47,724 nucleotides of DNA from Myxococcota bacterium. Its GTDB lineage: Bacteria > Myxococcota_C > UBA6777. Location of the stretch: NCBI GenBank assembly GCA_023150835.1, contig JAKLKB010000036.1:1-47724 (forward strand), written 5' to 3'. The number at the start of each line of letters is the position of its first letter. Position 1 is the first letter of the stretch. Below are positions 5,936 through 33,720 of the stretch, piece by piece. Made by a program: the position numbers and the translations under genes. Under the pieces are notes generated by a model that saw nothing but the letters and a program-made list of their open reading frames with translations, searched no databases and was not told where the DNA came from.

Positions 5936-6442
5936 TTAGTGCAAATAGCTCAGCCAGTTGGGGGGAGGTTGAGAGCGTTGAAGCTGGGCGGAGACTTGGG
6001 CATGTGCAGCAGGTTTGTTTGGACGTGCCAACAGCCGCATCCCTGCTTCTTCGGGCGTGCGGTTTCCTTTGCGACGATTACAAGAAACACAACAAGAAAC
6101 GATATTTTCCCAACACGTTTTGCCACCGCGAGAGCGCGGGATCACATGGTCAAAGCTGAGTTCGTCTTCGCTGAAATAATCTGTGCAGTATTGGCACTGA
6201 TACCCGTCACGTGCGTAGATATTTTGCCGAGAGAACCGCAAGCCAAAGTAGCGGCGTTTCACATACTTTAGCAAGCGTACCACCGACGGCATACTCATCG
6301 TCAAAGAGATCGAACGCACAGGATGATCGTACTCTTCAACGACTTCTACTTTCCCCATAAAGAACAACGCCAAGGCGCGCTGCCACGGGATCACGCTCAA
6401 AGGTTCGAAGGAAGCGTTCAACAAAAGAGTTCGGTTATGCAT
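5936..6442 (-). CDS. HNH endonuclease (McrA-like, Zn-finger HNH)
   Basis: TLLLNASFEPL N-terminus, RDGYQCQYC, DHVIPRSRGG, ENIVSCCVSCNRRKGNRTP; start ATG 6442. Confidence 0.92.
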   Translation of the reverse strand: MHNRTLLLNASFEPLSVIPWQRALALFFMGKVEVVEEYDHPVRSISLTMSMPSVVRLLKYVKRRYFGLRFSRQNIYARDGYQCQYCTDYFSEDELSFDHVIPRSRGGKTCWENIVSCCVSCNRRKGNRTPEEAGMRLLARPNKPAAHAQVSAQLQRSQPPPNWLSYLH

Positions 6443-6923
6443 GGTCTTTTTCCCTTTGCTTCGTATGGTGCAACGCCGAAACATCCGGCGTCAGGACCCG
6501 AAGCGCGGTGCGATTTCCCTGCCCCGACAGAGAGAACAACACACACGCCATGGCGCGAGTTTGAACGGCTTGGTACGGAGGCCCACGACCAACAATCCAA
6601 GCAAGCCCACGACGCTCGCTTTGTGCGGTTTGTTGGACTCCTCTCTTCCACAAAGACAGCCATGCAGGATTTTCGTGAAAGATCGGAGCGTCGTTTTCTT
6701 TGGCGACGCCGCAAGGCTCCGAACAAAAAACATTCGGTACCGGCAAGAATGGAGCGAGAATGGCTGGAAAAGGATGGAATCGTTTGAACGCATCTCTCCT
6801 TCAAAGACATCCGCGATGCCCCAAGCTCAGACCCGAGGCTTCGGCTTTAACGACACACTTTCAAAAAAGTTCAAAAGCAACCACCTCATCGCCCAAGGGT
6901 TTTCAGCACACGAGCTCGACCGC

Positions 6924-7838
6924 TCACTTTTTCCGACGTACACGCGGGATCAACAACACTTTGAGTCGTATCTCCTGCCCTTCAGAGATACGAATGCGCC
7001 GAGTATACGGGGAAAACCCTTCGGATTCTACACGCAACAGATAATTTCCCACAGCCAAACCGCCGCTGATCACGGGCGTTTGTCCCATATAGCGACCGTT
7101 GAGTGTCACCTTTGCCCCTGTCGGATTGGAAAGCACCACAAACTGCGTTTGGGAGCCTTGACCGTCTTGCTGAACCGCCCCATCCCCCGCGTCTTTGGTT
7201 TCACGCCCGCCTCCTTCAAATCGGATCGAAAGCCGAGAACTGATCGAGGGTTGGATGTTGATGGACTTTTCGATACTTTTGTGCCCGTCCAAAACAAACC
7301 GCAACACGTGCGTACCGATCGGCAAGCTCGCCAACAACGGAGTGCGTCCAAGCATACGCTCGCCTTGGAACACTTGGGCTCCAGAGGGCGTAGACTGCGC
7401 GATCAACAGACCGCTGCTTTCGGGCTTTGGGAAAGGTGAACCTTGACGCGGCAAAGGTTCCTCAAGGCGAGGTGAACCGTCTTCTTTTCCGTCCTCTTTT
7501 CCCTCTTCTTTTTGTCCGACCGCCCCATCGCCGCTGCGTTCTTCGAGTCGTACCCGCAAGGTCAACTCTGAGCGCGACGGAAGGATGACATGGCTGGTCC
7601 ACGTCAGTCGGTTCGGATGGCGAAGTTCGAGATGATGGCGCCCCACAGGTAGGCGCAGATCAAGGGGTGTCTTTCCCCTACGTTCACCGTTGACCCAGAC
7701 CGTCGCAGAAGGCGTTGAACGCAAGACAAGGCGCTCTGCATGGGCTTCTTGAACAAGTCCCGCCGACCACAACACGCTCCAAACGGCCACACCATGCAGC
7801 CAACGCGACCACCGACCACACAAACGATCCGTATTCAC
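6924..7838 (-). CDS. Secreted protein with three PEGA domains
   Basis: Signal peptide ending AHA; three S(T/N)PxxAxVxxNG...G.TP repeats; GTG 7838 after GGAGG. Confidence 0.85.
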   Translation of the reverse strand: MNTDRLCGRWSRWLHGVAVWSVLWSAGLVQEAHAERLVLRSTPSATVWVNGERRGKTPLDLRLPVGRHHLELRHPNRLTWTSHVILPSRSELTLRVRLEERSGDGAVGQKEEGKEDGKEDGSPRLEEPLPRQGSPFPKPESSGLLIAQSTPSGAQVFQGERMLGRTPLLASLPIGTHVLRFVLDGHKSIEKSINIQPSISSRLSIRFEGGGRETKDAGDGAVQQDGQGSQTQFVVLSNPTGAKVTLNGRYMGQTPVISGGLAVGNYLLRVESEGFSPYTRRIRISEGQEIRLKVLLIPRVRRKK

Positions 7839-8155
7839 ACGAAACCTCCGTTTCCAAGAGCGCCGCTCCTCTGTGCAACATCTCTGCAACATCTTCTTTC
7901 GCCCTCATTAAAGCCGATATCGCTTGCATTTGCGATGCTTTCGCAAAAGAGCGCTTCTTTGTAATAAGGCAACCCCAAAGACAATGCAAGATCTCCAACC
8001 CCCTAAAAACAAAAACCCACCCAACGATCACCAAACCACCCACGAGAAGATTTGACAGTCTGCCGAGAAAAGGGCATCTTGGTGGCCGATGACGTGGAGA
8101 TGGATCTTGCGTGTAAGACTTTTCAAAAGATTTCACGCGAAAAAGGAGGATGCGC

Positions 8156-8989
8156 ATGAAGCGCGTGTTGGTCATTGCGGGATCGGATTCAGGGGGCGGG
8201 GCAGGCATTCAAGCGGATATCAAAACCATCGCAGCACGCGGTGTGTATGGCATGACCGCCATCACGGCATTGACGGCACAAAATACGATGGGAGTAGAAG
8301 ATGTCTTTGAGATCCCGTTGGCTTTCGTGGGACGCCAGATCGACGTTGTGATGAAGGATATCGGTGCAAACGTCTGGAAGACAGGGATGCTCTCAAGCCG
8401 CGAGATCATCGGACTCGTAGCAGGAAGGGCGCGAGATTACCTTGTCGATCGGCTGATCGTGGACCCCGTGATGGTTGCCAAAGGCGGTAGCCTGTTGCTC
8501 AAAACAGACGCCAAAGACGCTTTGATCCGAGAACTCTTCCCTGTGGCATTTGCGATCACCCCCAACCATCACGAAGCCCAAGAGCTTACAGGTTTGGAGA
8601 TCAAAACCCCCCAAGATATGGAAGAAGCGGCGCGAAAGCTCCATCAGATGGGGCCTCGTTATGTGATCGTCAAAGGCGGCGATCTTCCCAAAGAACAAGA
8701 CGCCCTTGATATCCTCTACGATGGAGGGTCTTTTTTTACACTGCGCGCACGCCGCCGCCAAACCTACAACACTCATGGGACGGGATGCACCTTTGCCTCT
8801 GCTTTCGCAGCGGAGATCGCCCGAGGACAGCCCGTATTGGATGCGGCCCGCCTTGCCAAACGCTACGTCACCGCCGCCATCGACTATGCCGACGAGATGG
8901 ATATCGGCAACGGCAACGGCCCCCTCAATCACTTCTTTGGAAAAGTCACCCCACTCCCCGACGAATCTTCCCAAACCACAAAAAGCTGA
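8156..8989 (+). CDS. thiD: Hydroxymethylpyrimidine/phosphomethylpyrimidine kinase
   Basis: IAGSDSGGGAGIQADIKT, TAQNT, KTGML, VDPVMVAKGG, TPN, HGTGCTFASA; GGAGG RBS. Confidence 0.96.
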   Translation: MKRVLVIAGSDSGGGAGIQADIKTIAARGVYGMTAITALTAQNTMGVEDVFEIPLAFVGRQIDVVMKDIGANVWKTGMLSSREIIGLVAGRARDYLVDRLIVDPVMVAKGGSLLLKTDAKDALIRELFPVAFAITPNHHEAQELTGLEIKTPQDMEEAARKLHQMGPRYVIVKGGDLPKEQDALDILYDGGSFFTLRARRRQTYNTHGTGCTFASAFAAEIARGQPVLDAARLAKRYVTAAIDYADEMDIGNGNGPLNHFFGKVTPLPDESSQTTKS

Positions 8990-10938
8990 TCGCTTAATAA
9001 GCGCATTTGTGCATCTTTTGCATACCGCGATGTGGGATGCAGACGTAAGATATCTTGCAATAAAGCATACGCCTTTGCGCGCTGGCCTGCTTCACGCAGT
9101 TGATCTGCTTCTTCCAAGATCCCCTCGCAACGGCGTGCATCTTCCAACAAGATCCCACCCAAGATCGGCGGATGCTCGCGCAACCACGCATCGATCTCGG
9201 CTTCGACGCGCCGAATCGCGCTCGCCTCCGCAACACGCCGCGCATCGGTCGTTTGCGGATTCGGTTTGGTCGACACTTGCGAGATACCCTGCGCATCGGT
9301 CGTTTGCGGATTTGGTTTGGTCGACACTTGCGAAACACGCCGCGCATCGGTCGTTTGCGGATTCGGTTTGGTCGACACTTGCGAGACACGCCGCGCATCG
9401 GTCGTTTGCGGGTTTGTGCTGATCTGAGATTGCGATTTGCGCCGCGTATCGGTCGTTTGCGGGTTTGTGCTGATCTGAGATTGCGATTTGCGCCGCGTAT
9501 CGGTCGTTTGAGCCTCTGCCCTCGCTGATACTTGGGGGCCTATCGCCGTTGCCAAGCGATCGACTTGGGGTGTTTGGATGGTTTGGATCTGTTGGGAGGT
9601 GTTGCGCAGCGGTTCGGGGTTGGGGTGTGCGTGGAAAGAGTGAGAGAGTTTTTCTAGTTCATCTTCTGAAAAGATCGCCTCTTCAAGCAAAGGAAGATGG
9701 CGGGCAAGCTGTTCTTCTTCGATGTTATGGGGCGTTGGAGTCAAGATACCAAAGGACGGAACGGGTGGCGTGGGAGAGGCATCGCCTGTGGGAGCGATCA
9801 AGGCGGCATAGGCGACAGGAGCGACAGGGCGTTTGACCAACGTTTGGAGTGTGTAGTTATCGTCTTGATCGTGTTCAAAAGCCGAAGGGAGCGAAGACAA
9901 GGCGTCTTCGATGTCGTCGACGATTGTGGGATGGGCGACTTCTGCGAGATCATCTTCTGTACGGATCCCCGAGTCGCTGTCGTTGTGTGTTGTGTGCTCG
10001 AATGAAGCGGGATATTGGGGCAGTTGATCCGCAGAAGGTGATCGCAACATCTGATCGAGTTGTTCGGGCTTGAGCAGCGGAGATCGAGAAACAGAAGTGG
10101 ATTGTTGGAAGATATCTTGTTCTTGCGCAGAAGAGCGAGCAGCAGAGCGCGGTTTTGACCCCGCAGCCAAGGCCGAAGAGGACGGCAACGGAACACTTGG
10201 GGCGGGCGCATCCACAGGCAAAGCCGCCCCTTCGTGGCCAAACTCTAAGCGTGCAGCGAGTTCCAAAAGCGCCGCATCTTGGGCATAACGAGTCTGAGCG
10301 TAGCGTTGTTGAACTTCTGCAAAGACGCGATAGGCTTGGGGTTGACGGCCAAGATGCAACAGGATCTGCGCACGCGCCAACATCCACTCGGGAGCGCGCC
10401 CATCCCGCCCTTCTTGGCGTTCCAGTTCTTTGAGGGCTTTTTCGTAACTGGCGGGATCACGGGCAAAGATCAACGTTTCCAATAAGGCCCTTGCCCCCGG
10501 CTGGATCACATCCAATAAACCGATCGCGGGCGGTTTCGGCAAAGAAGCCAGATAAGCGATCGTCGGATCGACTTTTTCTTCTTCAAGGCCCAAGCGTTTT
10601 GTTCGGGCTTCACGGCTTTCTTTCTTGATGCCTTGTAAGGTCCGACGAATAAACCACACCAACCAACCGACACTCACCGCAACCAACAGCAAAAAAACCC
10701 ACCCGAGGATGTTGTTGATATTGCGCAGCATCAAGAAGGTCTGGGCAAAATGAAACACCACAGACCACACCAGCCACAAAGCCAGCACAAAAGCCAAGAC
10801 CACAAGGCCGATCTTGAGATAGGCAGCGTGATGTTGGAAGGCCCCTTGCGCATTACGCCAGATCGACCCCAACCCCGTCCATTGGGAGACCCCTCGTTGC
10901 AAAGACTGCCATTGTGAACGAAACCACTCCATGCTCAC
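8929..10938 (-). CDS. Hypothetical membrane protein: two N-terminal TM helices, TPR-like segments, long low-complexity linker with 17-aa repeats
   Basis: 669-aa ORF directly after the dynamin-like gene; hydrophobic segments near aa 42-97; similar motifs QAYRVFAEVQQRYAQTRYAQDA and KAYALLQDILRLHPTSRYAKDA. Confidence 0.7.
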   Translation of the reverse strand: MSMEWFRSQWQSLQRGVSQWTGLGSIWRNAQGAFQHHAAYLKIGLVVLAFVLALWLVWSVVFHFAQTFLMLRNINNILGWVFLLLVAVSVGWLVWFIRRTLQGIKKESREARTKRLGLEEEKVDPTIAYLASLPKPPAIGLLDVIQPGARALLETLIFARDPASYEKALKELERQEGRDGRAPEWMLARAQILLHLGRQPQAYRVFAEVQQRYAQTRYAQDAALLELAARLEFGHEGAALPVDAPAPSVPLPSSSALAAGSKPRSAARSSAQEQDIFQQSTSVSRSPLLKPEQLDQMLRSPSADQLPQYPASFEHTTHNDSDSGIRTEDDLAEVAHPTIVDDIEDALSSLPSAFEHDQDDNYTLQTLVKRPVAPVAYAALIAPTGDASPTPPVPSFGILTPTPHNIEEEQLARHLPLLEEAIFSEDELEKLSHSFHAHPNPEPLRNTSQQIQTIQTPQVDRLATAIGPQVSARAEAQTTDTRRKSQSQISTNPQTTDTRRKSQSQISTNPQTTDARRVSQVSTKPNPQTTDARRVSQVSTKPNPQTTDAQGISQVSTKPNPQTTDARRVAEASAIRRVEAEIDAWLREHPPILGGILLEDARRCEGILEEADQLREAGQRAKAYALLQDILRLHPTSRYAKDAQMRLLSDQLFVVWEDSSGSGVTFPKK
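9236..9510. repeat. Coding tandem repeat, 51-bp unit, ~5.5 copies in two subtypes
   Basis: atcggtcgtttg core recurs every 51 bp; encodes PQTTDARRVSQVSTKPN / PQTTDTRRKSQSQISTN. Confidence 0.9.
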
Positions 10939-11001: not shown

Positions 11002-12960
11002 TTACGGGCTTGAACGCACAGAAGCTCCTTGTACGGGGGCCACCGAAGAGGAAGGGCTTTGAAGCAAAGCGCGGATCTCTTGAAGACGAGCAAGAAAACG
11101 ATCTCGCAACAAGTCGAGCTCTTTTTGGCGAATTTCCAAGATGGCACGTTGTGATTCCAAATACCCCGCCTGTCCGAGTTGATCGCGATGCTCTTCCATC
11201 ATCCGCGTGATCCGACCGAACAAGCTATCAAAGTACTGACTCACCCATTGTTTGATGCCTTGCGACACCCGATCAAGGATCAAAGCCATCTTGTCTGGAA
11301 GCAGGCGGCGTCCTTCGTGTAGCTGTTTGATCTGCGACTCGATATGTTGCCGAAGCTGCCGCGCTTTCATATAGTTTCGCGCAAACAGTCCCACCATAAA
11401 ACCGCCGATCCCACCGACAGGAAAAGCCAACGGACCTAAGAAAGACAGCAACGCCATCCCCTGCCCCCCCGCTGCCATCGTCGCACTCACCGTTGTCAGA
11501 CCCAAGATCGCCTCGGCAGCGCCCAAACGATCCTCGTATCCATCAAAGATCCCAAGCAGCGCTTTTTGGTTGCGGCTCAAGGCAAAAGACGTGCTGCTGT
11601 GCTTGAGTTGCCCGGGATCGCTCATCGCCAGCAGATCATCCAATTGCCGATAAAGCCATCGATGCGCGGCTTGAAAGATCGCATCCACCCGCTCTGCGAT
11701 CACTTTTTCGATCTTCGACCCCTGCACCAAGTTCTTTTGGTACAGCGCCTCGATCGACTCCACCATCGTACCAAAGACCTGCATCGTTTGGATCTCTTCG
11801 AGAGCCTGCACCGTTCCGTCCAACAACGCCCCAACTTCCGGCTCGATCATCGCTTGCAGACCCTTGATCTCCCCATCGATCGCATCAAAAAGTTCGTACT
11901 TTTTGAGTTCGGCTTTTTCGTGCGACTTATGCAGCGCGTGGATCTTCTTCTCGACATCGGCGCGTTTGGTAAACAGCACCTCGCCGCGCAACGTCAAGAG
12001 CTTTTGCAACAGCGTCACCACTTCAAAGCTATTGCGGATCGAAGAGGCCAGCACCGCACGGCTCGCATCTTGGGCCAAGAATCGCTCCAGATCCGACTGA
12101 AACGCTGGAAAACCGCTCGCGACAAAAGCCGCTTCATCGCCTTGTGTGATCGCTTCCCACGCCATCCGTGCGTTGATCACATACGCCCGTATCCGATCAG
12201 GCCGCAGATCGGGGTGGGCGCTCAGATCAGGGTCACGCGAGATATTGTGGATCACGCGCTCGCGCAACCGCTCGCGTTGCGGCCAAAAATCGCCCGAAAG
12301 ATTGATCACCAAAAACACTTTGTCGCACTGGTGGGTTGCACGCTTGAGAAAGTCCATCTCCCCACGCGTAAAGGGCGGATAAATGGACGTGATAATCACC
12401 GCCCCCATCTCATCCAAAAATCGCGTAGAAAGCTCGGTATAACTTTGGATCACGTCGTTGAGTCCGGGCGTATCAAAGAAACGGATGCCGTTTTTTAGAT
12501 AGCCCAGAGGCAAGCAGACACGCACCTTTGCGACACCTTTTTGATTTTCGGGATTGTGCATCTGATCAGTAAAGTGTGGGAGTTCTGCCCACGAAGTCGG
12601 CGCAACGCGACCATCCAGATAATGCACCTCCAAACGCTCCGTCTCACCGTACTCAAACTCCATCAGCGAGCCTGTGTTGGAGACCACATCAGGGCGCGTC
12701 ACTTCGCGGCGCGAAAGGCAATTGATCGTGGTCGACTTTCCACTACAAGTCTCGCCAAAGATCCCGATGGTCAGGCGATCATCTTGAACCAACTGCAGCC
12801 GCTTTTGGATCCGATCCAGAACGGTTTGTGTCAGCGAATCTCCCCCATCTTGCGCCTGATCGCGCCGCAACATCTCTGCCATCATCTCCAAATCCGAAAG
12901 CAGTTCTTGGCGGATCTCTATGTAGCGAGAAAGGCTTCCTTGCGGGTGTCGAAGCGTCAC
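11002..12960 (-). CDS. Bacterial dynamin-like GTPase
   Basis: G1 GETCSGKSTTIN, G3 FFDTPGLN, helical stalk, Gly-rich hydrophobic paddle (LGPLAFPVGGIGGFMVGLF); start GTG 12960 (or 12966) behind AGGAG. Confidence 0.85.
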   Translation of the reverse strand: MTLRHPQGSLSRYIEIRQELLSDLEMMAEMLRRDQAQDGGDSLTQTVLDRIQKRLQLVQDDRLTIGIFGETCSGKSTTINCLSRREVTRPDVVSNTGSLMEFEYGETERLEVHYLDGRVAPTSWAELPHFTDQMHNPENQKGVAKVRVCLPLGYLKNGIRFFDTPGLNDVIQSYTELSTRFLDEMGAVIITSIYPPFTRGEMDFLKRATHQCDKVFLVINLSGDFWPQRERLRERVIHNISRDPDLSAHPDLRPDRIRAYVINARMAWEAITQGDEAAFVASGFPAFQSDLERFLAQDASRAVLASSIRNSFEVVTLLQKLLTLRGEVLFTKRADVEKKIHALHKSHEKAELKKYELFDAIDGEIKGLQAMIEPEVGALLDGTVQALEEIQTMQVFGTMVESIEALYQKNLVQGSKIEKVIAERVDAIFQAAHRWLYRQLDDLLAMSDPGQLKHSSTSFALSRNQKALLGIFDGYEDRLGAAEAILGLTTVSATMAAGGQGMALLSFLGPLAFPVGGIGGFMVGLFARNYMKARQLRQHIESQIKQLHEGRRLLPDKMALILDRVSQGIKQWVSQYFDSLFGRITRMMEEHRDQLGQAGYLESQRAILEIRQKELDLLRDRFLARLQEIRALLQSPSSSVAPVQGASVRSSP

Positions 12961-13264
12961 GGTCACTCTCCTGCCTTGCGTGGCCCTACGGGGCCGATCT
13001 ATCCCTGTCCAATGCGCCCCAAAGATATACGCATGGCTGCACAAAAGCAAAGCCTCCGCCCTTCCTTCCTTGCCTACATACTGTATCTCCCGAAGGAAAT
13101 AGAGGTTCGAGGGGGTTGATCTTGCTCGGTCCTTGCAACATCCTGTTGTGTTGTGCGCGAGCAGAAAAATATCCTTGATGTTCTGTTTGCACCATCGTTC
13201 GGCACAAATCCACTTCGCGTTGTACGAACACACCTCCCAACCCCGAAGAAAGCAGGCAAGCCTC

Positions 13265-16200
13265 ATGGCAACGCAAGAAGCCCAAACCCTTCCAGCCTCC
13301 CCACCTCCCAAAAAACGCCGATGGCTCAGGCGGATCTTGTGGTTGCTGGGTGGCCTCTTGATGCTTCCTGTGGTGATCTTGCTGCTGTTTCTAGTCTTTT
13401 GGCAGATCGGGCCAAGTCGCGCTTTGGTTCGGTCCGTCGGTCTGTCCGTTGCATCGGGATTTTTGCATGGAAAGATCGAGCTAGACTCTCTCGGTGGAAC
13501 TTTGCTGACTGGACTTGAAGTCAGCGGCGTCCGCTGGTACAGCCGACAAGGCAAGCTGATCGCTGGACTCAAACGGCTCGATGTCCGCTATGATCTGATG
13601 AAGTTTCTGACCCAAGGCGAACTCGTCGTCACTTCGCTGACGCTCGAAAAACCCGAAGGATACTTGTTTGTCCAAAAAGACGGCCAGATCAACTTGCTCG
13701 CCCATCTCAACCTCGGCCCACCAAGCCAAGCCCCTCCCCCCGAAGTCGACTTGTCCTGTACCCCCCAAACCTTCGGAAAATCCGCAGGCTTTCGGCTATC
13801 TGTGCAAAAGATCGCGATCCACGACGTGCGGTTTTCATGGGGAGAAGGCGAAAATGCCCTTCGTGTCGAAGGATTGAACCTTTCCACTGACTTCAAAATG
13901 ATCGGATCCACCCTGATGGCCCATCTCAGCGACCTCCATCTCGACCTGTTCAACCCCGACGTCAAAGTCCGCAAGATCAGCCTCCGCTTCAAGATGGAAA
14001 CCCTCTGCGATCCCCGCACCAAGAGACAGATCACACAACTCCACGCCAAACAACTCGATCTCGACTTTGGTCAGCGTTCGGCCCTCCATCTCGACGCCAC
14101 CATCAAAGACCTCTCGACCCTCGATCTGCAAGTCAAATCCCGCCGATTCTTCGTAGCGACCGACGATATCAAGCGCATCGTCCCCGTCTATCCCGTCAAA
14201 CCCGATGTCCAAGCCGATCTCTTTACCGCCAGCGGTCCCCTTTCCGATCTTAAAGCCGACCTCAAACTCCGCCTCGGTCAAACCTCTCTCAAACTCGATG
14301 CCCGCGCAGGCATCCTCAACCAAAGCTACGATGTCAAGCTCCAACTCTCCAAAGCTGATCTCGCCGAGATATTGGGCAACCCCGCCCTTCAAAGCCTGCT
14401 TTCTCTTGAATTAACCGCCAAAGGAAAAGGCTTTTCGGATAAAACCAAAGGAAAAGTTCACCTTAAAGTCCGGCCAAGTTCATTTCAGCAATTCAAGATC
14501 GAAGAAGTCTCCGTTCTCGTCGACGCCGCCGACGGAGCCTTTACCATCCCCGCCCTACGTGTGCGCACGCCCTACCTCAACATCCCCAAGGGGGAAGCCT
14601 ACGTCAAACTCGACGGCGGCATCGTACGCGCTGACATCGACGGACGCATCGCAAACCTTTCTCCCCTCGGGAAAGTCGTCAAGCAAAAGCTCGCAGGAAG
14701 CGTCTCCTTCAACCTCAAAGCCAACGGAAAAAAATTCCTCCCCCAAGCCAACCTCACACTCAGCGGTCGAAGCATCCGCCATCCCGCAGCAAGTGTCGAG
14801 ACGATCCGCCTTCGCGCCGCCTTGCTCGATCTTCAGCCCATCACCGCCGAGATCAAAGAACTCTCCGTTCAAGGCGTCCAAGCAGGCGGACAAACCGTCT
14901 ACCGCGCCGATATCGGACTCCAGTACAAGATGGGACAAGGCAAACAAGGCCCCGCTCATCTTGTTCGCTTAGACAAACTCCAATTCGATGTCGGAACGGG
15001 TCTCTTTCGATTGCAGCCCAAAAACAAAAAGACCCGCACGCAGATCTCCTTTCAAGACGATATCGCAACGATCAAAAACTTTCGCCTCCAAAACGACCGT
15101 AGCAGCGCACGACAACGCCTGCGCAGACAACTTGCGATCCTCCGACGCCACCTCTTGCGCGCCCCCAAAACATCCGTCACCACACGATCTTTTGCAACAT
15201 ACCAAAGCGAACTCCAGCGCCGCGCAGAACAAAGCGATCTCCCTCGCCTTTGTCGCACCCTTTACAAACAACGCTATCTCGCATCACGCGCAACCACCCA
15301 ACGCCCAAGCCGCTCAAAGCGCACCGTCACCCCCTCAAAACAACGCTCGATCCGATCAAAACAACGCTCGATCCGATCAAAACAACGCTCGGTCCGATCA
15401 AAGCAACGCTCGGCCCCATCAAGGCACACAGCCTCAAGATCAAAGCAACCCTCGACCAAAGCAGCGGCTGCTGCGCAGGTTTACACCATCGCAAGCTGCC
15501 ACAGTCTCCTCGAACGCGCAGAGCAACACTTCGAACACACGACCCAAGCATGCACCACCCAAAACCCCGAATCCATCGCCATCCAAGACGCTCGCTTTCA
15601 CATCAAAGGCGCGGGTCAAACCTTGGGTCTGGCGATCCGCGATCTCGCGGTGGGCTGCGTCACAGGCGTACTTGGGATCATGCCCGATACACCGTTGCGT
15701 GGGTATCTTGATGTCGCGTTGGATGTCGCTGGAGACTTTCGCAAACCCCGCCTCGAAAACCTCTCTATCCACCTGAAAGACGGTCAATTCGACAAGTTCC
15801 GCGATCTCACCCTCGCCCTCAACGCATCTTACAACCCCAAACGCTCTCCCAAAAACCTGCGGCTCCCGCGTGATGTCTTTCACCTCGATCTCAACGCTGG
15901 ATACAAAGAACTCAACTTGCTGCGCCGAACCGATGCAAACACCCCCCAAAAGGCCGAACGGAAGCTGATCGCGCTCAAAGCCCGTCTCCCCATCCGCGCC
16001 GCCATCCAAGGAATGCCGCGTCAGCCCATCCAGTTCGAACGAAAGCTCCGCGAACCCATCCTCTTCCTCTCGCTCCCCAAGATATCCCTTGGCTGGCTTG
16101 CCCGCGTCCTCAATCAAGGCGACCTCGCCCGAGGGCAACAGCCCGGGACGCTCCAACTTGGCGGCACCGTCGATGCCGAGATCAAGCTACTCGGGCCGCT

Positions 16201-19200
16201 GAGTGTCCCCACGCTCGATCTGCGCTTTGCCCTCGAAAAAGGCCGCTACGAGCAACTCAGCGATATCGACCTCAAACTCAACGTCCACTTCCATGACGGC
16301 GAACTCCGCCTCCCCAAAGAAGAGAATCGCCTCTACATCAACAAAAAGCCGATCTTTGCGCTCGGTGGGATGCTCCCCCTCCACCTTCGCCTTTCTCCTC
16401 CAACGCGCCCTCAAAAACGCAAAGCGGCCGCTGCTTCGCTTTATTGGTTGGATGATACACCGCTCGACTTTTTCTTTAAGATCTATGGTCAACAAGTTCA
16501 AACATGGCGAGACTTTTTACCTACCGATCTGCGCGATGCGATCGGTGGTCTTTTGCACGCAGATATCCTGCTTGCAGGCAAACCCAGCGCCCCCTCATTC
16601 CGCTTTGATATCCGGTTTGAAGAAGGCAGCTTCTGCCCACTTGTTTCTCAAAACGTCCGACTGTCCGCCAAGGAAAGACGAGCGCTGTTAAAGAAAGCCC
16701 AAGCAGACGAAAAAAAGCGCATCGCTGCGCTGCGTAAACAAGGCAAAAACGAAGCCCCCCAAACGATCACGCTCGACGATATGCCTTTGACTCGCTCTGT
16801 CAGTGCCTTCCGATGTAGCCAAAAAGTTCGCTCTCTTGTCAGCAAACAGCCCAAAGCCACTTCCTTGCGCGTGAAAGGCATCCATTACCACCTCGGTTTG
16901 CGCTATCTTCCCCCGGGACAAAGCCACGAGATCTCGCCGCTTTGCCCAAAAGAGTCGGGGTGCTTCTCGTTTTTCTCCAAGCTCCACCTTGCCCAACACA
17001 AGGCGGCCAAAGCCACGACCTACTTTGAACTTCCCGAAAAAACCAACTGGCTTGCGATGACCCTGCGCGTCGATCCCAAAACGCTCCAACCATCGGTTCG
17101 GATCTTCGATCACGTCAGCCTCGACCTCCAGATGCCCGGGCTTCCCTTGCGCGATCTCTACCGATTTGTCCGTATCCCCGCACTTTTACAACTCAAACCC
17201 GGAAGCCGCTTTGTCTTTTCTTTCCGCGAACAAGGCAAACTCTCGCAACCCCGCCTCGCCCTTTCCGCACGCCTCCAAGACGTCGGCTACGAGATGGGTC
17301 GCGACGTGGACGACAAGCCACTTTACCTCGATGGAGTACAGGCGATCGTCGATCTGTCCCTTCAGCCCGGCCAAACTAAAGCTCTGATTAAAACCCACGT
17401 GTTCAACAAGCCTCTGCTCACCAACACCACGCGCTATGATCTCGATGTCGCCGTCGATCTGGCTCAACTCAACCAGATGCTGCCCGGCAACCCCCGCCCC
17501 AAAACCCCCGCCAAACAAGGCATGGTGCGCGTCGAAGCGGGACGCTTCTTCTCCAATCGCTTGACCTTCCATAACTTCCGATTGGAAAACTTCGCACAAC
17601 TCGGCGGCATCTACACCAAACTCGCAGGGATGCTCACAGGCGCGGTACTGCTTGAGGGCGATCCTGCCTGCCCTGAATGGAAAACCATCGAACGGGCCCA
17701 AGGCAGCGCCCCCCCCAAAGAAAGCCACATCGAACTGCGCAACGGCATCCTTGGTGATCGCGGTAGCCCAAAAGCCCAAAGCAAAGAGTTTGTCGCAGCC
17801 CTCAAAGCACGCGAAGCCTTCGAAGCGATCGCACGACGTTGGCGAGTCGCCACCAACCAAGAAAACGAACTCAGCAACAAGATCGATCAGATCCAAAAAA
17901 AGCCAAACCTCGCTGACGAAGACAAAGCCAAACTTCGCTCGTTGCTTGCTCAACGCCAAGACTTTCGACGACGCACTTTTTACCCGATTACAGGACGCTA
18001 TAACCGCGCCCGCCAAGCGCTGCTCGCCTTCTCTCGCAGCAGCAAAAAAGCCCTACGCTTTAGCCATTTTTATATCGGCTTTTTTTCTACAACCAACGAT
18101 GAGCAAACGCAAAAAGACGGACGCACACGCATCCTGCTCAAGATGGTTCAAGACGGCTCATGGAAGATCGAAGGCAAAAAGCGGATCATGCGCGGCTTTG
18201 ATATCCTCGACGGAGAGATCCTTGCGGCCCTGCCTCTCGCGCTTGCGGCGATCTCAAACCCACAAGAGCGCCAACGGCGTTGTCCTGCCCTGAAACAGGG
18301 AAAGGCCGACGAACGCCTGTACGTCAAACTCGGCGTGATCGGTGAGCGCATGAAGCTCGATTTCATCGAAGCCTTTGCTCCCGGGATCGAGATCCAAGGT
18401 GAACCCAAACTGGTCGTCAACCTCTCTGGAACCCTCCAATCTCCCGAGATCAAAAGCGGTCAAGTCGGTGTCGAGATCAGCAAACTGACCTATCCCGCTT
18501 TTGGGGTAGAGATCGGCGAGCAAAAAAATCCGCAATATCGCTTCGCAAAGCCGATGCGTTCGCAGTTTGTGATCCAACTCAAACCCAAACAATATCAAGT
18601 CCTCTGCCGACTTTACGGAAAAACGGGAACCCCCTTCCAAATCGACGGGTGGATCGCTCACAAGAACTTTGTCCCCTCGGACATGAGCCTCAAGATCTTT
18701 TCCAAAGAATTCAAGCCGATGGACACCCTGCGCTACCGCGCAACGCTCCAAACCAACATCTCCATCCAAGAAGCCCTTGATGCCCCCAAGATACGCGGAT
18801 CGATCACCATCCCCGAATTTCTTTTCACTCTCCCAGAAAGCAGCCGCAGCCCACAAACCTACATCGAAGACGAAGATATCTATATCCTCGGTGAACCTCG
18901 CAAAAAACGACGTAGCCGCGACCCATTCGAGGAAAAGCCCCCTCCATCGGGCATCACACAAAAGATGCTGCTCGATCTACAGATCATCATCCCGCGCAAC
19001 TTCTTTGTACGCAACCGCGATCTCAGCATCGAAGCCAAAACCGAAGACTTCCGTCCACTCGGCGTCAACCTACAACGCGGACGCCTCCGCCTGACAGGTG
19101 GTTTGCAGATCCAACGCGGCGAGTTGGCCTTTTACGGGAAAAAATTTCTTGTCGAAAGCGGAAGCGCCGTCGCTTTTACAGGTCAATCCTTTGGCATGGA

Positions 19201-19882
19201 TGAACTCGGATACATCGACCCCAAACTCAATGTGATCGCGGTGTACATCGTCAAAGTCCAAAGCGGCACAAGCCTCGCAAAACAAGGCTACAAGCGTGTC
19301 AAAGTCTTGCTCAAAGCCCTTGGCTCGGCCCAAAACCCGATCATCGAGTTCGAAGTCATCGACGCCGACACCGAAACCAAGATCTCTATGGATCGCATCA
19401 ACGTGCTTTCCTTGATCCTCACAGGCACCACCACCGAAGATCTCAGCCGAGGCCAACAAGACAACATCACCAAACAAGCCGTCGGAATGGTCGGAAGTGC
19501 CGTCGCTTCCGAACTCAAAAACGCGCTCTCTGGCGTCGTTAAAATGGACGTCCTCAACATCGAAACAGGCGCAAACGTCAGTGATCTCAAAGTCGAAGCG
19601 GGTTGGTACTTGACGCCTGACCTCTACCTCGAAGTCGCCGTCAAGCCCGCCCCCCTCGAAGAAGAAAGCTACCTCGATATGCGCCTCGACTACGCCATCA
19701 ACCGCAATCTCTCCCTCGAACTGCGCTCCGGCCTCGTCAAGCGCAACGACGCGTTGTGGTTTCGTGGGTCGGGCCACTTTTTTGTCAAAGGAAAATTCTT
19801 GTGCCTTTGGCCGTTCTGTCCAGAAGACAGAAGGCTCCCCAAACCCCCACCGAAACGAAAAACTCCTCCACCAAAACGATAA
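13265..19882 (+). CDS. tamB: Very large TamB/AsmA-like (DUF490) protein, ~2200 aa
   Basis: N-terminal TM after KKRRWLRR, long amphipathic beta-strand repeats, C-terminal TamB-like region (G.L.FYGKKF.VE.G...DPKLNVIA...LSLILTG...EAGWYLTPDLYLE...LDYAINRNLSLE); start ATG 13265. Confidence 0.8.
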   Translation: MATQEAQTLPASPPPKKRRWLRRILWLLGGLLMLPVVILLLFLVFWQIGPSRALVRSVGLSVASGFLHGKIELDSLGGTLLTGLEVSGVRWYSRQGKLIAGLKRLDVRYDLMKFLTQGELVVTSLTLEKPEGYLFVQKDGQINLLAHLNLGPPSQAPPPEVDLSCTPQTFGKSAGFRLSVQKIAIHDVRFSWGEGENALRVEGLNLSTDFKMIGSTLMAHLSDLHLDLFNPDVKVRKISLRFKMETLCDPRTKRQITQLHAKQLDLDFGQRSALHLDATIKDLSTLDLQVKSRRFFVATDDIKRIVPVYPVKPDVQADLFTASGPLSDLKADLKLRLGQTSLKLDARAGILNQSYDVKLQLSKADLAEILGNPALQSLLSLELTAKGKGFSDKTKGKVHLKVRPSSFQQFKIEEVSVLVDAADGAFTIPALRVRTPYLNIPKGEAYVKLDGGIVRADIDGRIANLSPLGKVVKQKLAGSVSFNLKANGKKFLPQANLTLSGRSIRHPAASVETIRLRAALLDLQPITAEIKELSVQGVQAGGQTVYRADIGLQYKMGQGKQGPAHLVRLDKLQFDVGTGLFRLQPKNKKTRTQISFQDDIATIKNFRLQNDRSSARQRLRRQLAILRRHLLRAPKTSVTTRSFATYQSELQRRAEQSDLPRLCRTLYKQRYLASRATTQRPSRSKRTVTPSKQRSIRSKQRSIRSKQRSVRSKQRSAPSRHTASRSKQPSTKAAAAAQVYTIASCHSLLERAEQHFEHTTQACTTQNPESIAIQDARFHIKGAGQTLGLAIRDLAVGCVTGVLGIMPDTPLRGYLDVALDVAGDFRKPRLENLSIHLKDGQFDKFRDLTLALNASYNPKRSPKNLRLPRDVFHLDLNAGYKELNLLRRTDANTPQKAERKLIALKARLPIRAAIQGMPRQPIQFERKLREPILFLSLPKISLGWLARVLNQGDLARGQQPGTLQLGGTVDAEIKLLGPLSVPTLDLRFALEKGRYEQLSDIDLKLNVHFHDGELRLPKEENRLYINKKPIFALGGMLPLHLRLSPPTRPQKRKAAAASLYWLDDTPLDFFFKIYGQQVQTWRDFLPTDLRDAIGGLLHADILLAGKPSAPSFRFDIRFEEGSFCPLVSQNVRLSAKERRALLKKAQADEKKRIAALRKQGKNEAPQTITLDDMPLTRSVSAFRCSQKVRSLVSKQPKATSLRVKGIHYHLGLRYLPPGQSHEISPLCPKESGCFSFFSKLHLAQHKAAKATTYFELPEKTNWLAMTLRVDPKTLQPSVRIFDHVSLDLQMPGLPLRDLYRFVRIPALLQLKPGSRFVFSFREQGKLSQPRLALSARLQDVGYEMGRDVDDKPLYLDGVQAIVDLSLQPGQTKALIKTHVFNKPLLTNTTRYDLDVAVDLAQLNQMLPGNPRPKTPAKQGMVRVEAGRFFSNRLTFHNFRLENFAQLGGIYTKLAGMLTGAVLLEGDPACPEWKTIERAQGSAPPKESHIELRNGILGDRGSPKAQSKEFVAALKAREAFEAIARRWRVATNQENELSNKIDQIQKKPNLADEDKAKLRSLLAQRQDFRRRTFYPITGRYNRARQALLAFSRSSKKALRFSHFYIGFFSTTNDEQTQKDGRTRILLKMVQDGSWKIEGKKRIMRGFDILDGEILAALPLALAAISNPQERQRRCPALKQGKADERLYVKLGVIGERMKLDFIEAFAPGIEIQGEPKLVVNLSGTLQSPEIKSGQVGVEISKLTYPAFGVEIGEQKNPQYRFAKPMRSQFVIQLKPKQYQVLCRLYGKTGTPFQIDGWIAHKNFVPSDMSLKIFSKEFKPMDTLRYRATLQTNISIQEALDAPKIRGSITIPEFLFTLPESSRSPQTYIEDEDIYILGEPRKKRRSRDPFEEKPPPSGITQKMLLDLQIIIPRNFFVRNRDLSIEAKTEDFRPLGVNLQRGRLRLTGGLQIQRGELAFYGKKFLVESGSAVAFTGQSFGMDELGYIDPKLNVIAVYIVKVQSGTSLAKQGYKRVKVLLKALGSAQNPIIEFEVIDADTETKISMDRINVLSLILTGTTTEDLSRGQQDNITKQAVGMVGSAVASELKNALSGVVKMDVLNIETGANVSDLKVEAGWYLTPDLYLEVAVKPAPLEEESYLDMRLDYAINRNLSLELRSGLVKRNDALWFRGSGHFFVKGKFLCLWPFCPEDRRLPKPPPKRKTPPPKR
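15335..15411. repeat. Coding tandem repeat, 21-bp unit x ~3.7 (SKQRSIR)
   Basis: tcaaaacaacgctcgatccga repeated. Confidence 0.85.
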
Positions 19883-20049: not shown

Positions 20050-20988
20050 ATGTTTCAGACGATGTATGACATCTCCATGGGCGGACGCGCTGGCATCCTC
20101 AACCGCATCTTTACCGTTGCGATGTTGCTGGTCGTCGCCGTCCAACTTTGGCGCTTGCTCCACTTTCGTGTACGCCTCTCGCGCTGGCGCGATCGGCTTC
20201 GCCTTCTTGAACAAGAAGCCCGCGAAGAAGGCGTTGTCACCGCCACCGACGAAGACGTCCTCCCCCCCACCAACCCCTATGCCCGCTTTTGGGATATGGT
20301 CCCTTCGATGGCCATTATGTTCGGACTTCTCGGAACCTTCGTCGGCCTCACGCTCTCTTTGAGCGAACTCCCCGTCACAGGCGAAGTCGATCAAATCCAA
20401 AAAGGTCTGTCTCGATCGATCCCTTCGATGGGTACGGCCTTTTGGACCAGCCTTGCAGGTCTGATCGTTGCTCTGGCTGTTCGGATCTCGAACGCCTTTA
20501 TGGCTTCAAGCTTCCGCAAGCGCGTCATCCAAACCCTGATGCAAAGTGAACCCGCTGTGATCGAAGCCCTTGAAAGCAAAGCCTTCCAACTTGGCCGAGA
20601 TGGCGCGCTTTTGCGCACGCACAGCATCCGTGAGCTACTCTGGCACCAAAACCGACTGCTCAATCAAACCGTCGCCCGCGTCGCCCCCCAAGTCTCCGAA
20701 GGTATCGCACGCGGTCTCGGCCAGCTTAACGGGCAAACACCTACTCCCATCGCAACAAACACCAGCAGCCCTTCCCTTGACCGCCTTGTTCGACAGCTTG
20801 AGACCCAACAACAAGATCAACAACGCAGCCTCCAAGCCATGATCGAACAACAACAAGCCATCCTTCAACAACTCCAGCACCTGATCGCCCTCTGGAGCCA
20901 AGCCCCCACCGCCGACTCGACCGCTGATTATTCCCTCGAACGTACCAACGTCGGCACGCCCACACCTTTTCCCAACAAAGGCCGATAA
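20050..20988 (+). CDS. MotA/TolQ/ExbB-family ion-channel subunit, ZorA-like
   Basis: Three TM helices; VPSMAIMFGLLGTFVGLTLSL and MGTAFWTSLAGL signatures; ~160-aa tail with Gln-rich coiled coil. Confidence 0.8.
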   Translation: MFQTMYDISMGGRAGILNRIFTVAMLLVVAVQLWRLLHFRVRLSRWRDRLRLLEQEAREEGVVTATDEDVLPPTNPYARFWDMVPSMAIMFGLLGTFVGLTLSLSELPVTGEVDQIQKGLSRSIPSMGTAFWTSLAGLIVALAVRISNAFMASSFRKRVIQTLMQSEPAVIEALESKAFQLGRDGALLRTHSIRELLWHQNRLLNQTVARVAPQVSEGIARGLGQLNGQTPTPIATNTSSPSLDRLVRQLETQQQDQQRSLQAMIEQQQAILQQLQHLIALWSQAPTADSTADYSLERTNVGTPTPFPNKGR

Positions 20989-21044
20989 ACCTCGCGGATC
21001 AAGCCGATCCGCTCCACAACTCTTTGCAATCTGGAGGTGGTTTC

Positions 21045-22172
21045 GTGAACCCACAAAACGATTGGGATGAAGGCGGCGAAGAAGAACTCGATCCTTGGGC
21101 GAGCGTCGTGGATCTAATGAGCGCTTTTGCGCTCGTACTTTTTCTTGCTGTCACCTTCTTTGTCATCAACTACAACAGCGCAAGCACCAAACTCAAAGAG
21201 CGGCAGTCTCAACTTGTCGTCAAAGAAAAACTCCTGCAAAGCTCGATCTTGAGCTTGCGCCAACGCACCGAAAGCCTTGAAAAGTCCCGAGCATCCGAGG
21301 CCAGCTTGACCAAGAAAAACGATGAGATCCAACGTCAACTGATCCTGCTCGCCGAACAAGAGAAAAAGCTGCGCACCGAGCGCGAAAAACTACTTGGCGA
21401 TCGACAAGCCCTCCTTGCAGACAAGGAAAAGCTGATCGCCGATCAAGAAAAACTCAAAAAAGAAAAACAAGAACTCACCATGATGCTTGGGCGTCAAGAA
21501 GCCCTTGTCAGCGAGCAAAAACAACTTGCGGAGCGCCAGAAACAGGCCACCGAAGAACAAAAACAAGAAACACTTCGCCAACAAAACCTCGCATCACAGG
21601 CCCAAACCAGCCGTCAACGTTGCCAAGAACGCCTCGAAAGCTTGCTCAAACAGCGCCGCGAAGTCCTCAGCGCCGTCTACAAATCCTTTGTGATCGCCCA
21701 ACAAAACAACCAAACCCGCTCAGCCGTCGGATTTGACCCCAAAACAGGCCGATTCCGCCTTGGTGGCGAAGTGTTGTTTGCCGAAGGAAAAGATCAACTC
21801 ACTCCTGAAGGAAAGCGCCAATTGGACGTTGTCATGGAGGCTTTGCAAAAAGTCGTCAAACAAAAAGACGTCGTCGCCCTGCTTTCCGGCATTATGATCG
21901 AAGGACACACCAGCCAAACGGGCTCCGAAACCACCAACTGGGTTCTGTCCTCTCGGCGATCTCTTGCGGCGTTGCGCTACTTGTTGTCTCGCGCAGACGC
22001 ATCGCAACGCAGCACTTATGCCAAGCTGCTCTTTTCCGCTGCCTACGGCCCATTTCGACCTGTAAAAAGCGAAAAAGGCACCGTCGATAACCGGCGCAGC
22101 CGACGCATCGAGATCAAGATCGTCTTCAAAAGTCAAGACCAGCTCCAAGGCATCTTGCGCCAAATCAACTAA
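21045..22172 (+). CDS. MotB/OmpA-family subunit, ZorB-like, with long coiled-coil spacer
   Basis: WASVVDLMS TM motif with conserved Asp; heptad-rich linker; OmpA-like domain VLFAEGKDQL...IEGHTS...NWVLSSRRS...RRIEIKI; GTG 21045 after GGAGG. Confidence 0.85.
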   Translation: MNPQNDWDEGGEEELDPWASVVDLMSAFALVLFLAVTFFVINYNSASTKLKERQSQLVVKEKLLQSSILSLRQRTESLEKSRASEASLTKKNDEIQRQLILLAEQEKKLRTEREKLLGDRQALLADKEKLIADQEKLKKEKQELTMMLGRQEALVSEQKQLAERQKQATEEQKQETLRQQNLASQAQTSRQRCQERLESLLKQRREVLSAVYKSFVIAQQNNQTRSAVGFDPKTGRFRLGGEVLFAEGKDQLTPEGKRQLDVVMEALQKVVKQKDVVALLSGIMIEGHTSQTGSETTNWVLSSRRSLAALRYLLSRADASQRSTYAKLLFSAAYGPFRPVKSEKGTVDNRRSRRIEIKIVFKSQDQLQGILRQIN

Positions 22173-22231
22173 GCACTTCGCCCTTCACGCAAGGGTTGAC
22201 GCGCCATATCCTGCGCGATCAAGGAGAGAGC

Positions 22232-23422
22232 ATGCCCATCCACATCTCCGAAAAGGAACGCCGCCTCCCTTTCGATACCTATTATGTCGAAGGCACCGAG
22301 TCCGGCTTGACCGATGATCTCAAGTTCCGACCCAACAAATACTTCCATCCCATCGACTCGATCGACGCCAACGATCGAGAGTGCATTTTTCGCTACCAGC
22401 GCTCCCTTGCGCCCGTCGAAGGCGAACTCACGCTCGAACAAGTCCGCCAGATCTTGCTCGGCGTTCTTGATGCCCAACAGCGCGTCGCGCATGACCAAAC
22501 CTTTTACCTCTTTCCCGGGGTCGAAGCCTTTGGCCTTGACCGCCGACACAACCTACGCATCGCCCTGATCAACGCACGACCGATCCGCGACCGCGAGTGT
22601 GATCCCCAAGAAATGAATGTGGACGCCTTCATCCGCCTGCTCGCCGCTCACTGCCCCGAAGCACACAAACGCATCGTGGCCTACAACAAGCCGATCCTCA
22701 CCCTGCGCCATCTCCAACAGATCCTCGAATACAAAGGCGCTCCCATCCTCACCACCGCCTTCGCAACGCTCGCTGTCGTCGGCCTGATCGTCTTTGGACT
22801 GCTCCACCAATACGGCCCCCCCCGCATCCGTCAACCCCTCCAACAATGGACCGCTGGCGTCCTCCAAAGCGGAAAGCGCTTTACCCGCTCAGGCACAGAC
22901 GAATGGTACGTCCAGATCGGCGAAGAACGCCGCAAGCGCGAATACACTCACCCTCCGCTCTCCTTGACCCTCGTCCTTCAACCCCAAGTCAACACCGACG
23001 AAGAACGCCAAACCCTCTTCCAATTCCTCAATCGCTTGCTTGCCACAGAATTCCCCAACACACGATACCAACTCCTGCTCCCTTCGCCCGATCTGTCCTC
23101 CAAAGCCTATATGCGCTGGAAAGCTGCCTGCGAGTACGGCTTCCAAAAACAAAAGTGCCTGCCCAAAAGCTGGCTGCTGCAAATCGAGGAATACAAAGGC
23201 GCGATCCGCCCCCTCCTTGGAGCCCTCCGCGAAGCCATGCACCAAGAACGCGCCAACAAACCACTCGTCGAACTCCGTTACGTCGAACTGATCGGCATGG
23301 CGGACTTGACCCTCAAACAAAACACTCCTCCCACCACCCCCCAAACAACGCCGCACTCACCCGCACCCACCAAAACCCCCGCTCCCGCTACTCCAAACAG
23401 AACCGCCCCTCCCACACGCTAA
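22232..23422 (+). CDS. Hypothetical single-pass membrane protein, possible N-terminal pseudokinase domain
   Basis: ATG after AAGGAG, 59 bp after the ZorB-like stop; central TM (AFATLAVVGLIVFGLL); Pro/Thr-rich tail. Confidence 0.7.
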   Translation: MPIHISEKERRLPFDTYYVEGTESGLTDDLKFRPNKYFHPIDSIDANDRECIFRYQRSLAPVEGELTLEQVRQILLGVLDAQQRVAHDQTFYLFPGVEAFGLDRRHNLRIALINARPIRDRECDPQEMNVDAFIRLLAAHCPEAHKRIVAYNKPILTLRHLQQILEYKGAPILTTAFATLAVVGLIVFGLLHQYGPPRIRQPLQQWTAGVLQSGKRFTRSGTDEWYVQIGEERRKREYTHPPLSLTLVLQPQVNTDEERQTLFQFLNRLLATEFPNTRYQLLLPSPDLSSKAYMRWKAACEYGFQKQKCLPKSWLLQIEEYKGAIRPLLGALREAMHQERANKPLVELRYVELIGMADLTLKQNTPPTTPQTTPHSPAPTKTPAPATPNRTAPPTR

Positions 23423-23446: not shown

Positions 23447-23648
23447 CGGGATTTCCGCAATTGTATTTTCGCCCTATCCCTACGGGATTTCCGCGATGGT
23501 GTTTCGTGGGGTTCCACCCCACGCCCCGCAAGGGAGCACGGCCCCCTTGACCCCGTATTGGCCAAAAGATCGCTGCTTTTCAAACAAACGACTCTGTCGC
23601 CTCAAGCGGCACGAACACGGGGAGTTTGCGTCAACAACGCCACTCCTA
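23447..23648. mobile_element. MITE-like dispersed element, family B copy
   Basis: Collinear with 33508-33698 and 37992-38160 (GGGG-N5-CCCC hairpin, cccc.caaggga, ccttgacccc, ttcaaac, gaac.cgg, gtcaac...cactcc); degenerate left end cgggatttccgcaattg, partly duplicated at 23483. Confidence 0.6.
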
Positions 23649-33510: not shown

Positions 33511-33698
33511 GGACTCTTTGCTCGCTGGATCAGAGCCAACTGCGGGATCATTTTTTATGGGGCGTTGCCCCATACCCCACAAGGGAACTCCGTCCCCTTG
33601 ACCCCACGTTGGCGGAACAAACATACGTTTTTCAAACCAGCGTCTGCACCGTTTGAGACGCCGCGAACGCGGGGTCTTTGTCAACCGCATCACTCCTA
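33508..33698. mobile_element. MITE-like dispersed element, family B copy
   Basis: Collinear with copies at 23447 and 37992; right end gtcaaccgcatcactccta; left end degenerate (taaggact). Confidence 0.6.
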
Positions 33699-33720
33699 TC
33701 TGGCCGAGAGAGGCACCCCA

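Follow-up and report, generated by a model that had tools for sequence, protein, structure and literature searches.

A conserved three-gene module of Myxococcota with a ZorAB-like motor pair and a membrane protein of predicted pseudokinase fold

The DNA analysed here is contig JAKLKB010000036.1 of a Myxococcota bacterium (GTDB UBA6777), a stretch of 47,724 nt that we call the window, and our subject is a module of three genes at positions 20050..23422, named A, B and C in their order and together the trio. Gene A (20050-20988, start ATG at 20050) encodes a ZorA-lineage rotor subunit of 312 amino acids (aa) with three transmembrane (TM) helices, gene B (21045-22172, likely start GTG at 21045) a ZorB/MotB-type stator subunit of 375 aa, and gene C (22232-23422, likely start ATG at 22232) a single-pass membrane protein of 396 aa. 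The longest open reading frame of B opens at TTG 21024, and GTG 21045 is preferred because GGAGG precedes it and the starts of orthologues agree; that of C opens at TTG 22196, and ATG 22232 is preferred because 10 of 11 homologues start there. With these starts the gaps are 56 bp between A and B and 59 bp between B and C, in keeping with an earlier note on this DNA, which had described three co-oriented genes less than 60 bp apart; all three frames indeed lie on the + strand. The features which that note had read from the proteins are likewise all present, namely a three-TM protein with GLLGTFVGL, TAFWTSLAG and a Gln-rich tail (A), a protein with the motif WASVVDLMS, a TM helix and an OmpA-like domain (B), and a single-pass protein (C). 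The genome of the window (G000, 7.56 Mb, 93% complete) carries each gene once. The trio is a real, conserved and apparently undescribed module with the build of ZorAB, and is not a member of the Zorya defence systems.

Protein A, scanned like B and C against Pfam, NCBIfam and PADLOC, has hydrophobic segments at residues ~15-41, 86-104 and 126-155 and matches Pfam MotA_ExbB (E 4.9e-9), a family to which 10 other genes of G000 belong. Many PADLOC ZorA models match it, nearly all over TM2-TM3 alone (best ZorA1, 44.7 bits), and it stays far below the NCBIfam cut-offs for ZorA (36.5 vs 100 and 32.6 vs 500). When a profile of A was compared with the Protein Data Bank (PDB), the sole match under E 0.1 was Shewanella ZorA (8vvn), with GTF and AFLTS aligned. 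The structure model (pLDDT 75) shows three TM helices, a short link between TM1 and TM2 and a short helical tail; Foldseek places ZorA chains at ranks 1-5 and 7 (best E 1.8e-3), and in VIA-align ExbB (Z 11.9, rmsd 3.7, 161 aligned) is tied with ZorA (Z 11.4 and 11.0). Neither fold list holds a MotA chain, an absence that does not amount to exclusion. In a tree of 33 cores, which has no curated ZorA or MotA rows and several long outer branches, the ZorA-like proteins including A are split from the host's TolQ/ExbB/AglR-type proteins at 100/99, where two outgroup rows are what we take to be AglR-type, and the 13 trio A rows form one side of a branch supported at 79/85.

The residues that would form the ion path are kept in A. 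Thr96 in GTF (20335-20337, + strand) is the likely TM2 residue and Thr133-Ser134 in FWTS (20446-20451, + strand) are the likely TM3 residues; all three are invariant, Thr96 in 22 of 22 rows, and in 18 of 18 rows that include the distant family. They probably correspond to Thr147 and Ser184, respectively, the ion-path residues of E. coli ZorA (EcZorA) in PMC11946911. After TM3 the window's A continues for ~157 aa, made up of a conserved block specific to the clade (~aa 165-222) and a variable Gln-rich helix, and in 13 trio-type A this tail spans 132-230 aa. The cytoplasmic motif of this block occurs in 13/13 trio-type A and in 0/15 other ZorA-like proteins, a comparison that is partly circular since the motif was derived from the trio rows. 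Type I Zorya has a beta-hairpin and a Ca2+ site in the membrane-proximal cytoplasmic domain; the monomer model of A shows no strand there, and E59/E60 are conserved.

Protein B matches Pfam OmpA (E 4.4e-13) and no ExbD family of Pfam. Its best PADLOC match is ZorB1 (113 bits), and it too stays far below the NCBIfam cut-offs for ZorB (40.5 and 32.7 vs 400). The best NCBIfam match is to the PRK09039 "peptidoglycan-binding protein" family (NF006542-5), which covers nearly the whole length of B (TM helix, long helix and OmpA-like domain) with 60 bits, far under cut-offs of 305-388, and our literature search found no paper on this family. Asp23 (21111-21113, + strand), the conserved TM aspartate of 5:2 ion motors, is invariant in 21/21 rows; its equivalent in ZorB is Asp26, for which a functional role has been described (PMC11946911). 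N298, L301 and R305 of the wall-binding helix are nearly invariant. Between the TM helix and the OmpA-like domain lies a Pro-free stretch of helical type of ~190 aa, predicted from its sequence to be a long coiled-coil stalk. From Asp to the GH motif the window's B measures 260 aa; among 18 B-type proteins, of which 4 lack the motif, the distance is 234-264 aa in 7/7 trio B as opposed to 101-135 aa in 7 other ZorB-like proteins. Taken together, the ZorB1 match of B, the 8vvn and Foldseek matches of A and the 100/99 split bear out the proposal of the earlier note that the pair belongs to the ZorA/ZorB lineage and not with MotAB or ExbBD/TolQR.

Protein C matches nothing in the three libraries, and a search of 1.84 billion representatives gave 18 relatives. 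Its AlphaFold2 model, built on 12 sequences (pLDDT 73, pTM 0.45), predicts a cytoplasmic pseudokinase-fold domain (residues 1-169), a TM helix (~172-190), a further helix, a periplasmic alpha/beta domain with a Cys pair (~240-360) and a Pro/Thr-rich tail. Foldseek puts YukC/EssB at the top for this model (E 7.5e-5) and TraF fifth, the rest being pseudokinases and kinases, and the part that VIA-align aligns with kinases, residues 1-169, reaches Z 9.8 at best (rmsd 3.2, 158 aligned). A language-model search of the Atlas with a C homologue (P0001, 96% identical) returned the TraF/YukC cluster first (0.90, 157 shared features); the same search with the outer domain of C gave no usable match. The suggestion of the earlier note that the third protein is pseudokinase-like thus finds support at the level of prediction. 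The motifs VAIK, HRD and DFG are missing from the 27 aligned C sequences, and the window's C has no Pkinase match. QTFYLFPG, the degenerate catalytic-loop stretch of C, is similar to "Ytfvlapd", which a table of the review PMC12599244 gives for EssB. YukC and TraF have been described as non-catalytic interaction hubs (PMC9600267, PMC13037476, PMC12599244). The EssB family PF10140 was unmatched in 6/6 genomes of the window's family, with the control detected, and gave one sub-threshold match in 131 genomes. Since C lies near EssB in predicted fold and layout without a link in sequence, we speak of resemblance and not of membership of EssB. A complex prediction for A(1-226), B and C(1-363) scored 0.31 against a mark of 0.32 in a run without controls and was used neither way.

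All three frames are under purifying selection. Compared with G001, dN/dS is 0.096 for A and 0.065 for B, and 15 of 17 differences in C, among those listed for two contigs assembled from RNA runs and read by hand, fall at third codon positions. The identity of A across genera is 56-62%, compared with 33-38% for tamB or the PEGA gene, and the GC3 of the trio is like that of host genes. The window's phylum was sampled with six genomes, all of one family (G000 to G005; completeness of G000, G001, G002 and G005 64-93%), and a second phylum, entered via a MYXO-CTERM-rich genome and including the family f332 (G755, G680, G835), with 401 genomes. A co-oriented tamB-like gene (13133-19882, + strand; Pfam TamB 8.2e-41), absent from the earlier note, ends 167 bp before A, and the genes downstream of C point the opposite way. 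tamB lies directly upstream of A or B in 5/5 genomes of the window's family with the locus: the order is tamB-A-B-C-PEGA in G004, tamB-A-B up to the contig end in G001, and tamB-B-C-PEGA in G005 and G003 (the contigs of G003 break within B), where A belongs to a different operon. In genus g2 (L057:6214-11367, L020:1-4536) the relocated A closes an operon with transglutaminase-like and DUF4129/CarboxypepD genes. In other loci the neighbours are xdhC and genes for a PPIase, an MFS transporter and an FtsJ-type methylase. Probably tamB and the module are co-transcribed in the window's family, and tamB is no universal part of the module.

The earlier note had let its reading hang on the third gene being syntenic with the pair in other genomes, and so it is: C follows B in 9/9 loci in which the DNA behind B is assembled, in two distant lineages, and A precedes B in 8/10. 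A-B-C also stands in all of G755, G680, G835 and the metagenome contig L056, the distant lineage, in which C has 21-29% identity; between the two phyla the adjacency of B and C persists at 21-33% C identity, and in f332 the start of C overlaps the stop of B. An A-B-C set on a 5.6-kb contig of a Bacteroidia assembly (L038, A at 62% identity) is likely a binning error. Five further pairs of B and C homologues agree in the length of the longest contig, which hints indirectly at co-location. A locus scan with a tight C alignment gave one locus, two more diverse alignments having proved too loose for this purpose. Of 401 genomes sampled around G000, C is carried by 4, which all belong to the family of G000, and of the 401 of the second phylum by 2; in the class of the latter, 3 of 113 genomes have it, these being 3/3 of f332. 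Orthologues of A (E ~1e-112) occur in exactly the same 2 of 401 second-phylum genomes as C, while 13 others have matches over TM2-TM3 only. Because kin genomes are not independent, these counts amount to two lineages, in both of which the trio is single-copy and present in every adequately assembled genome. G002, without the trio, is uninformative, as it is 64% complete and also lacks matches for tamB and the dynamin-like gene described below. The hosts are uncultured, and the sequencing runs that contain the stretch come from activated sludge, wastewater and bioreactors. Among contigs from RNA runs, A-B is spanned in two studies and the whole trio in one; that C is not covered in X13 and X14 does not count as evidence. 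We take this cover as no more than a weak hint, as the runs were chosen with the stretch and might contain DNA, and as contigs reveal neither the level of expression nor whether the genes share one transcript.

None of ZorC, ZorD, ZorE or ZorF/G is adjacent in any trio locus, which extends what the earlier note had remarked for the window; no flagellar or motility gene is adjacent either. The EH signature of ZorC is absent from 8/9 genomes of both families and was detected in the control G401; in the ninth, G835, it lies on a contig other than that of the trio. There, apart from the trio, a ZorB-like gene stands beside an EH-signature (ZorC-like) gene (G835:C229:1523-3410), probably a true type I Zorya. 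Matches to ZorD models in G000, G004, G680 and G755 cover the generic SNF2 part only and are on other contigs, compared with 1023 bits in the control G401. Among the 13 weak-match loci of the second phylum, of which 16 selected proteins were scanned, L093 has ZorD and L104 ZorF, while Old-type and DruE-like genes are found in the vicinity of L102 and L095. Many of the others are orphan pairs with a short B, and a clade of ZorA/ZorB-like orphan pairs with a B of ~200 aa and no recognised effector among the neighbours examined recurs in several second-phylum families (L092, L094, L096-L098, L100, L101). An HNH endonuclease gene of the window (5936-6484, 182 aa) was considered as a stand-in for ZorE and rejected, as it has no ZorE match and is unlinked in G003, G005 and f332. 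We do not count the trio as a Zorya member because it has no linked ZorC, ZorD or ZorE, a short tail, a long stalk, housekeeping neighbours and a record of purifying selection. A literature search, which left most subscription journals outside its coverage, found no paper joining Zorya with a pseudokinase or ZorA/ZorB with Myxococc.

Compared with the ZorA5B2 motors of Zorya types I and II (8qyd, E. coli; 8vvn, Shewanella ANA-3; 8vvi, Sulfuricurvum; PMC11946911, PMC11890865), the trio shares a three-TM A with the TM2 Thr and the TM3 Thr/Ser, a helical A tail, a B in which both the TM Asp and, in the OmpA-like domain, the wall-binding N, L and R are retained, and the order A-B. In contrast, its A tail of 132-230 aa compares with 269-507 aa in the three solved ZorA (PMC11946911, PMC11890865), its B has a long stalk where the wall-binding domain of E. 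coli ZorB is fused without a linker (PMC11946911), and in place of ZorC/D/E/F it has a membrane pseudokinase-like gene in a core, single-copy context. With ExbBD/TolQR/AglRQS, called "generic ion transporters" in PMC12505986, A shares the three-TM fold, and these too are non-flagellar ion motors acting on the envelope; unlike B, their B subunits have no OmpA-like domain (PMC12505986), and no TonB/TolA-like partner stands next to the trio. B has the layout of flagellar MotAB/PomAB (TM Asp, linker, OmpA-like domain), but A has three TM helices and not four, lacks the torque-generating interface (PMC12505986 for the features of MotA), and G000 has no FliG match. Finally, C shares with YukC/EssB (6z0f) and TraF of pIP501 (8cba) a predicted truncated cytoplasmic pseudokinase fold, a single TM helix and an outer domain. 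It differs from YukC, which is all-helical outside (PMC9600267), in the alpha/beta fold predicted for its outer domain, and from EssB and TraF in having no detectable sequence homology to them, a diderm host and a tie to an ion motor instead of an ATPase.

Given that two distant families keep the trio without DNA-cutting partners, it is likely an everyday machine of the cell envelope and not a phage defence. More specifically, we give about even chances to a constitutive, core, non-defence envelope motor that is ion-driven and anchored in the wall, and that C would likely serve as a scaffold or as a coupling subunit. The residues that form the ion path of ZorAB-type motors, and their wall-binding motif, are preserved in A and B. 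By homology, five A would ring two B, the OmpA-like domain would grip peptidoglycan, and ion flow via Asp23 would turn the A ring. An alpha-helix rises by about 0.15 nm per residue. The B stalk, which exceeds that of other ZorB-like proteins by ~125-160 aa (~20 nm if helical), would put the anchor far from the inner membrane. The cytoplasmic domain of C, a dead kinase fold in the model, may act by binding, by analogy with YukC/EssB and TraF. C could then contact the conserved cytoplasmic block of A and relay the state of the motor to its own periplasmic domain, with a putative output in envelope upkeep or assembly that in the window's family would be genetically tied to tamB.

Several observations weigh against such a motor, or against parts of the mechanism. 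A is away from B-C in G003 and G005, the tamB link is confined to one family (tamB is not adjacent in 3/3 f332 genomes), and the trio clade is only moderately supported at 79/85. In part of the distant family C is shorter (271-309 aa) and much of the periplasmic domain is missing, so that the proposed relay to this domain is weakened. Long-stalk A/B pairs without C exist in G003 and G004, and hence such a motor is not always in need of C. The kinase-fold call for C stands on a 12-sequence model with pTM 0.45, and its Atlas match at 157 shared features is below the guide value of 170. HHalign of the N-terminal domain of C with host Ser/Thr kinases gave a probability of 0.4%, no better than unrelated controls, and the C profile matched designed proteins only in the PDB, and not EssB. 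Defence genes, too, can in some cases become fixed in a lineage, and part of the family has a dynamin-like gene with weak Leo matches and an HNH gene close by.

One rival is a nuclease-free Zorya-like defence, in which the motor would detect damage done to the envelope by phage and, via C, trigger depolarisation or an unlinked effector. The closest solved relatives of A are indeed ZorA, the best PADLOC match of B is ZorB1 at 113 bits, the dynamin-like gene (LeoBC/LeoA, 1.4e-13) lies beyond tamB in G000, G001 and G004, and the HNH gene is two genes behind C in G004. However, no ZorC, ZorD, ZorE or ZorF is linked, the HNH gene has no ZorE match and is not beside the trio in G003, G005 or f332, and the trio is fixed, single-copy and set among housekeeping genes, whereas the true Zorya loci among the sampled genomes have ZorD or ZorF beside them or other defence genes close by. 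None of the three solved ZorA has a tail as short as that of A, and truncation of the EcZorA tail abolishes defence (PMC11946911). We consider this defence unlikely, and the effector-swapped Zorya-like defence that the earlier note had put first is not supported as the lead reading, given a single-copy trio fixed in both families, its housekeeping neighbours and an A that is relocated yet kept; the non-defence motor which that note had offered as the alternative fits better. Somewhat less probable still than a nuclease-free defence is that the trio both powers and forms the hub of an apparatus for secretion or cell contact that has so far escaped recognition, used for instance in predation, with C in the place of EssB/YukC in type VIIb or of TraF in Gram-positive type IV secretion. 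The best structural and language-model neighbours of C are secretion hubs of the same layout, the QTFYLFPG stretch resembles that of EssB (PMC12599244), and tamB is adjacent in one family. Against this, WXG100 was not found in 5/5 genomes tested (control detected) and no type VIIb gene stands next to the trio, the six genomes of the window's family have no PF10140 match, the two families have no conserved ATPase, channel or substrate gene in common around the trio, and a shared fold is no proof of function.

It is also conceivable, though we think it improbable, that A and B are an orphan ZorAB-like motor and C merely a co-regulated neighbour with a separate job, since many orphan ZorAB-like pairs stand without C, both in the second phylum and in genomes of the window's family. 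This would leave unaccounted for the adjacency of B and C, kept at 21-33% C identity and despite the relocation of A, their overlap in f332, and the exact co-occurrence of A orthologues and C in the sample. Least credible of all, and very improbable in our judgement, is a divergent motility stator, flagellar or gliding: B does have the MotB layout and three of three f332 genomes carry FliG, but A has three TM helices, the fold lists hold no MotA chain, and no motility gene is adjacent. FliG was not found in G000, G001, G002 or G005 and gave weak partial matches in G003 and G004, and G000 has its 10 other MotA_ExbB genes. The earlier note would have given way had the pair clustered with flagellar MotAB, and A proved not to be MotA-like.

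Wall-anchored 5:2 motors have been described for two jobs, flagellar rotation and Zorya defence, and a core ZorAB-lineage motor with a pseudokinase-like partner would be a third. It is a tentative further step, which we hold with less than even confidence, that the trio stands for a 5:2 ion motor of a new class. In this reading a wall-anchored rotor of the ZorAB lineage with a housekeeping role would be wired to a membrane pseudokinase of EssB/TraF layout, a three-part machine moving mechanical work or a signal across the inner membrane in myxobacteria-like lineages. Components that have been met solely in anti-phage defence or in Gram-positive secretion would then be united, and ZorAB-type motors would have a standing job outside defence. 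With C, the EssB/TraF layout would reach diderm bacteria. A short-tailed motor without effectors would be useful for probing the mechanics of ZorAB rotation, and surveys of these lineages should not score matches to ZorA/ZorB profiles as defence systems.

Some further features of the window and its relatives deserve mention. The sister A/B pairs of G004 and G003 (L059:4612-7049, L060:1915-4509, L026:1-1708) have A tails of 267-370 aa and long B stalks, are adjoined by housekeeping genes, and are absent from G000. Divergent from tamB lies the dynamin-like GTPase gene (11002-13572), whose LeoBC/LeoA matches in PADLOC are weak (1.4e-13); it was not found in G002, G003, G005 or G680 at E 1e-10. 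It is followed by a gene for a membrane/TPR protein (8929-10938), an arrangement that is the same in G001 and, as regards the GTPase gene, in G004. A PEGA-domain gene (6924-7892) lies next to the HNH gene in the window; this pair of genes stands directly behind C in G004, and PEGA without HNH behind C in G003 and G005. Behind the window's C itself (~23495-23635, and again at 33568-33700 and 38009-38102) is an interspersed repeat of ~130 bp, found in 604 blastn segments across G000, which looks like an element of the REP or MITE type and at which the contigs from RNA runs break. A gene of the angiotensin-converting-enzyme family (Peptidase_M2, 706 bits) occupies positions 2330-4795.

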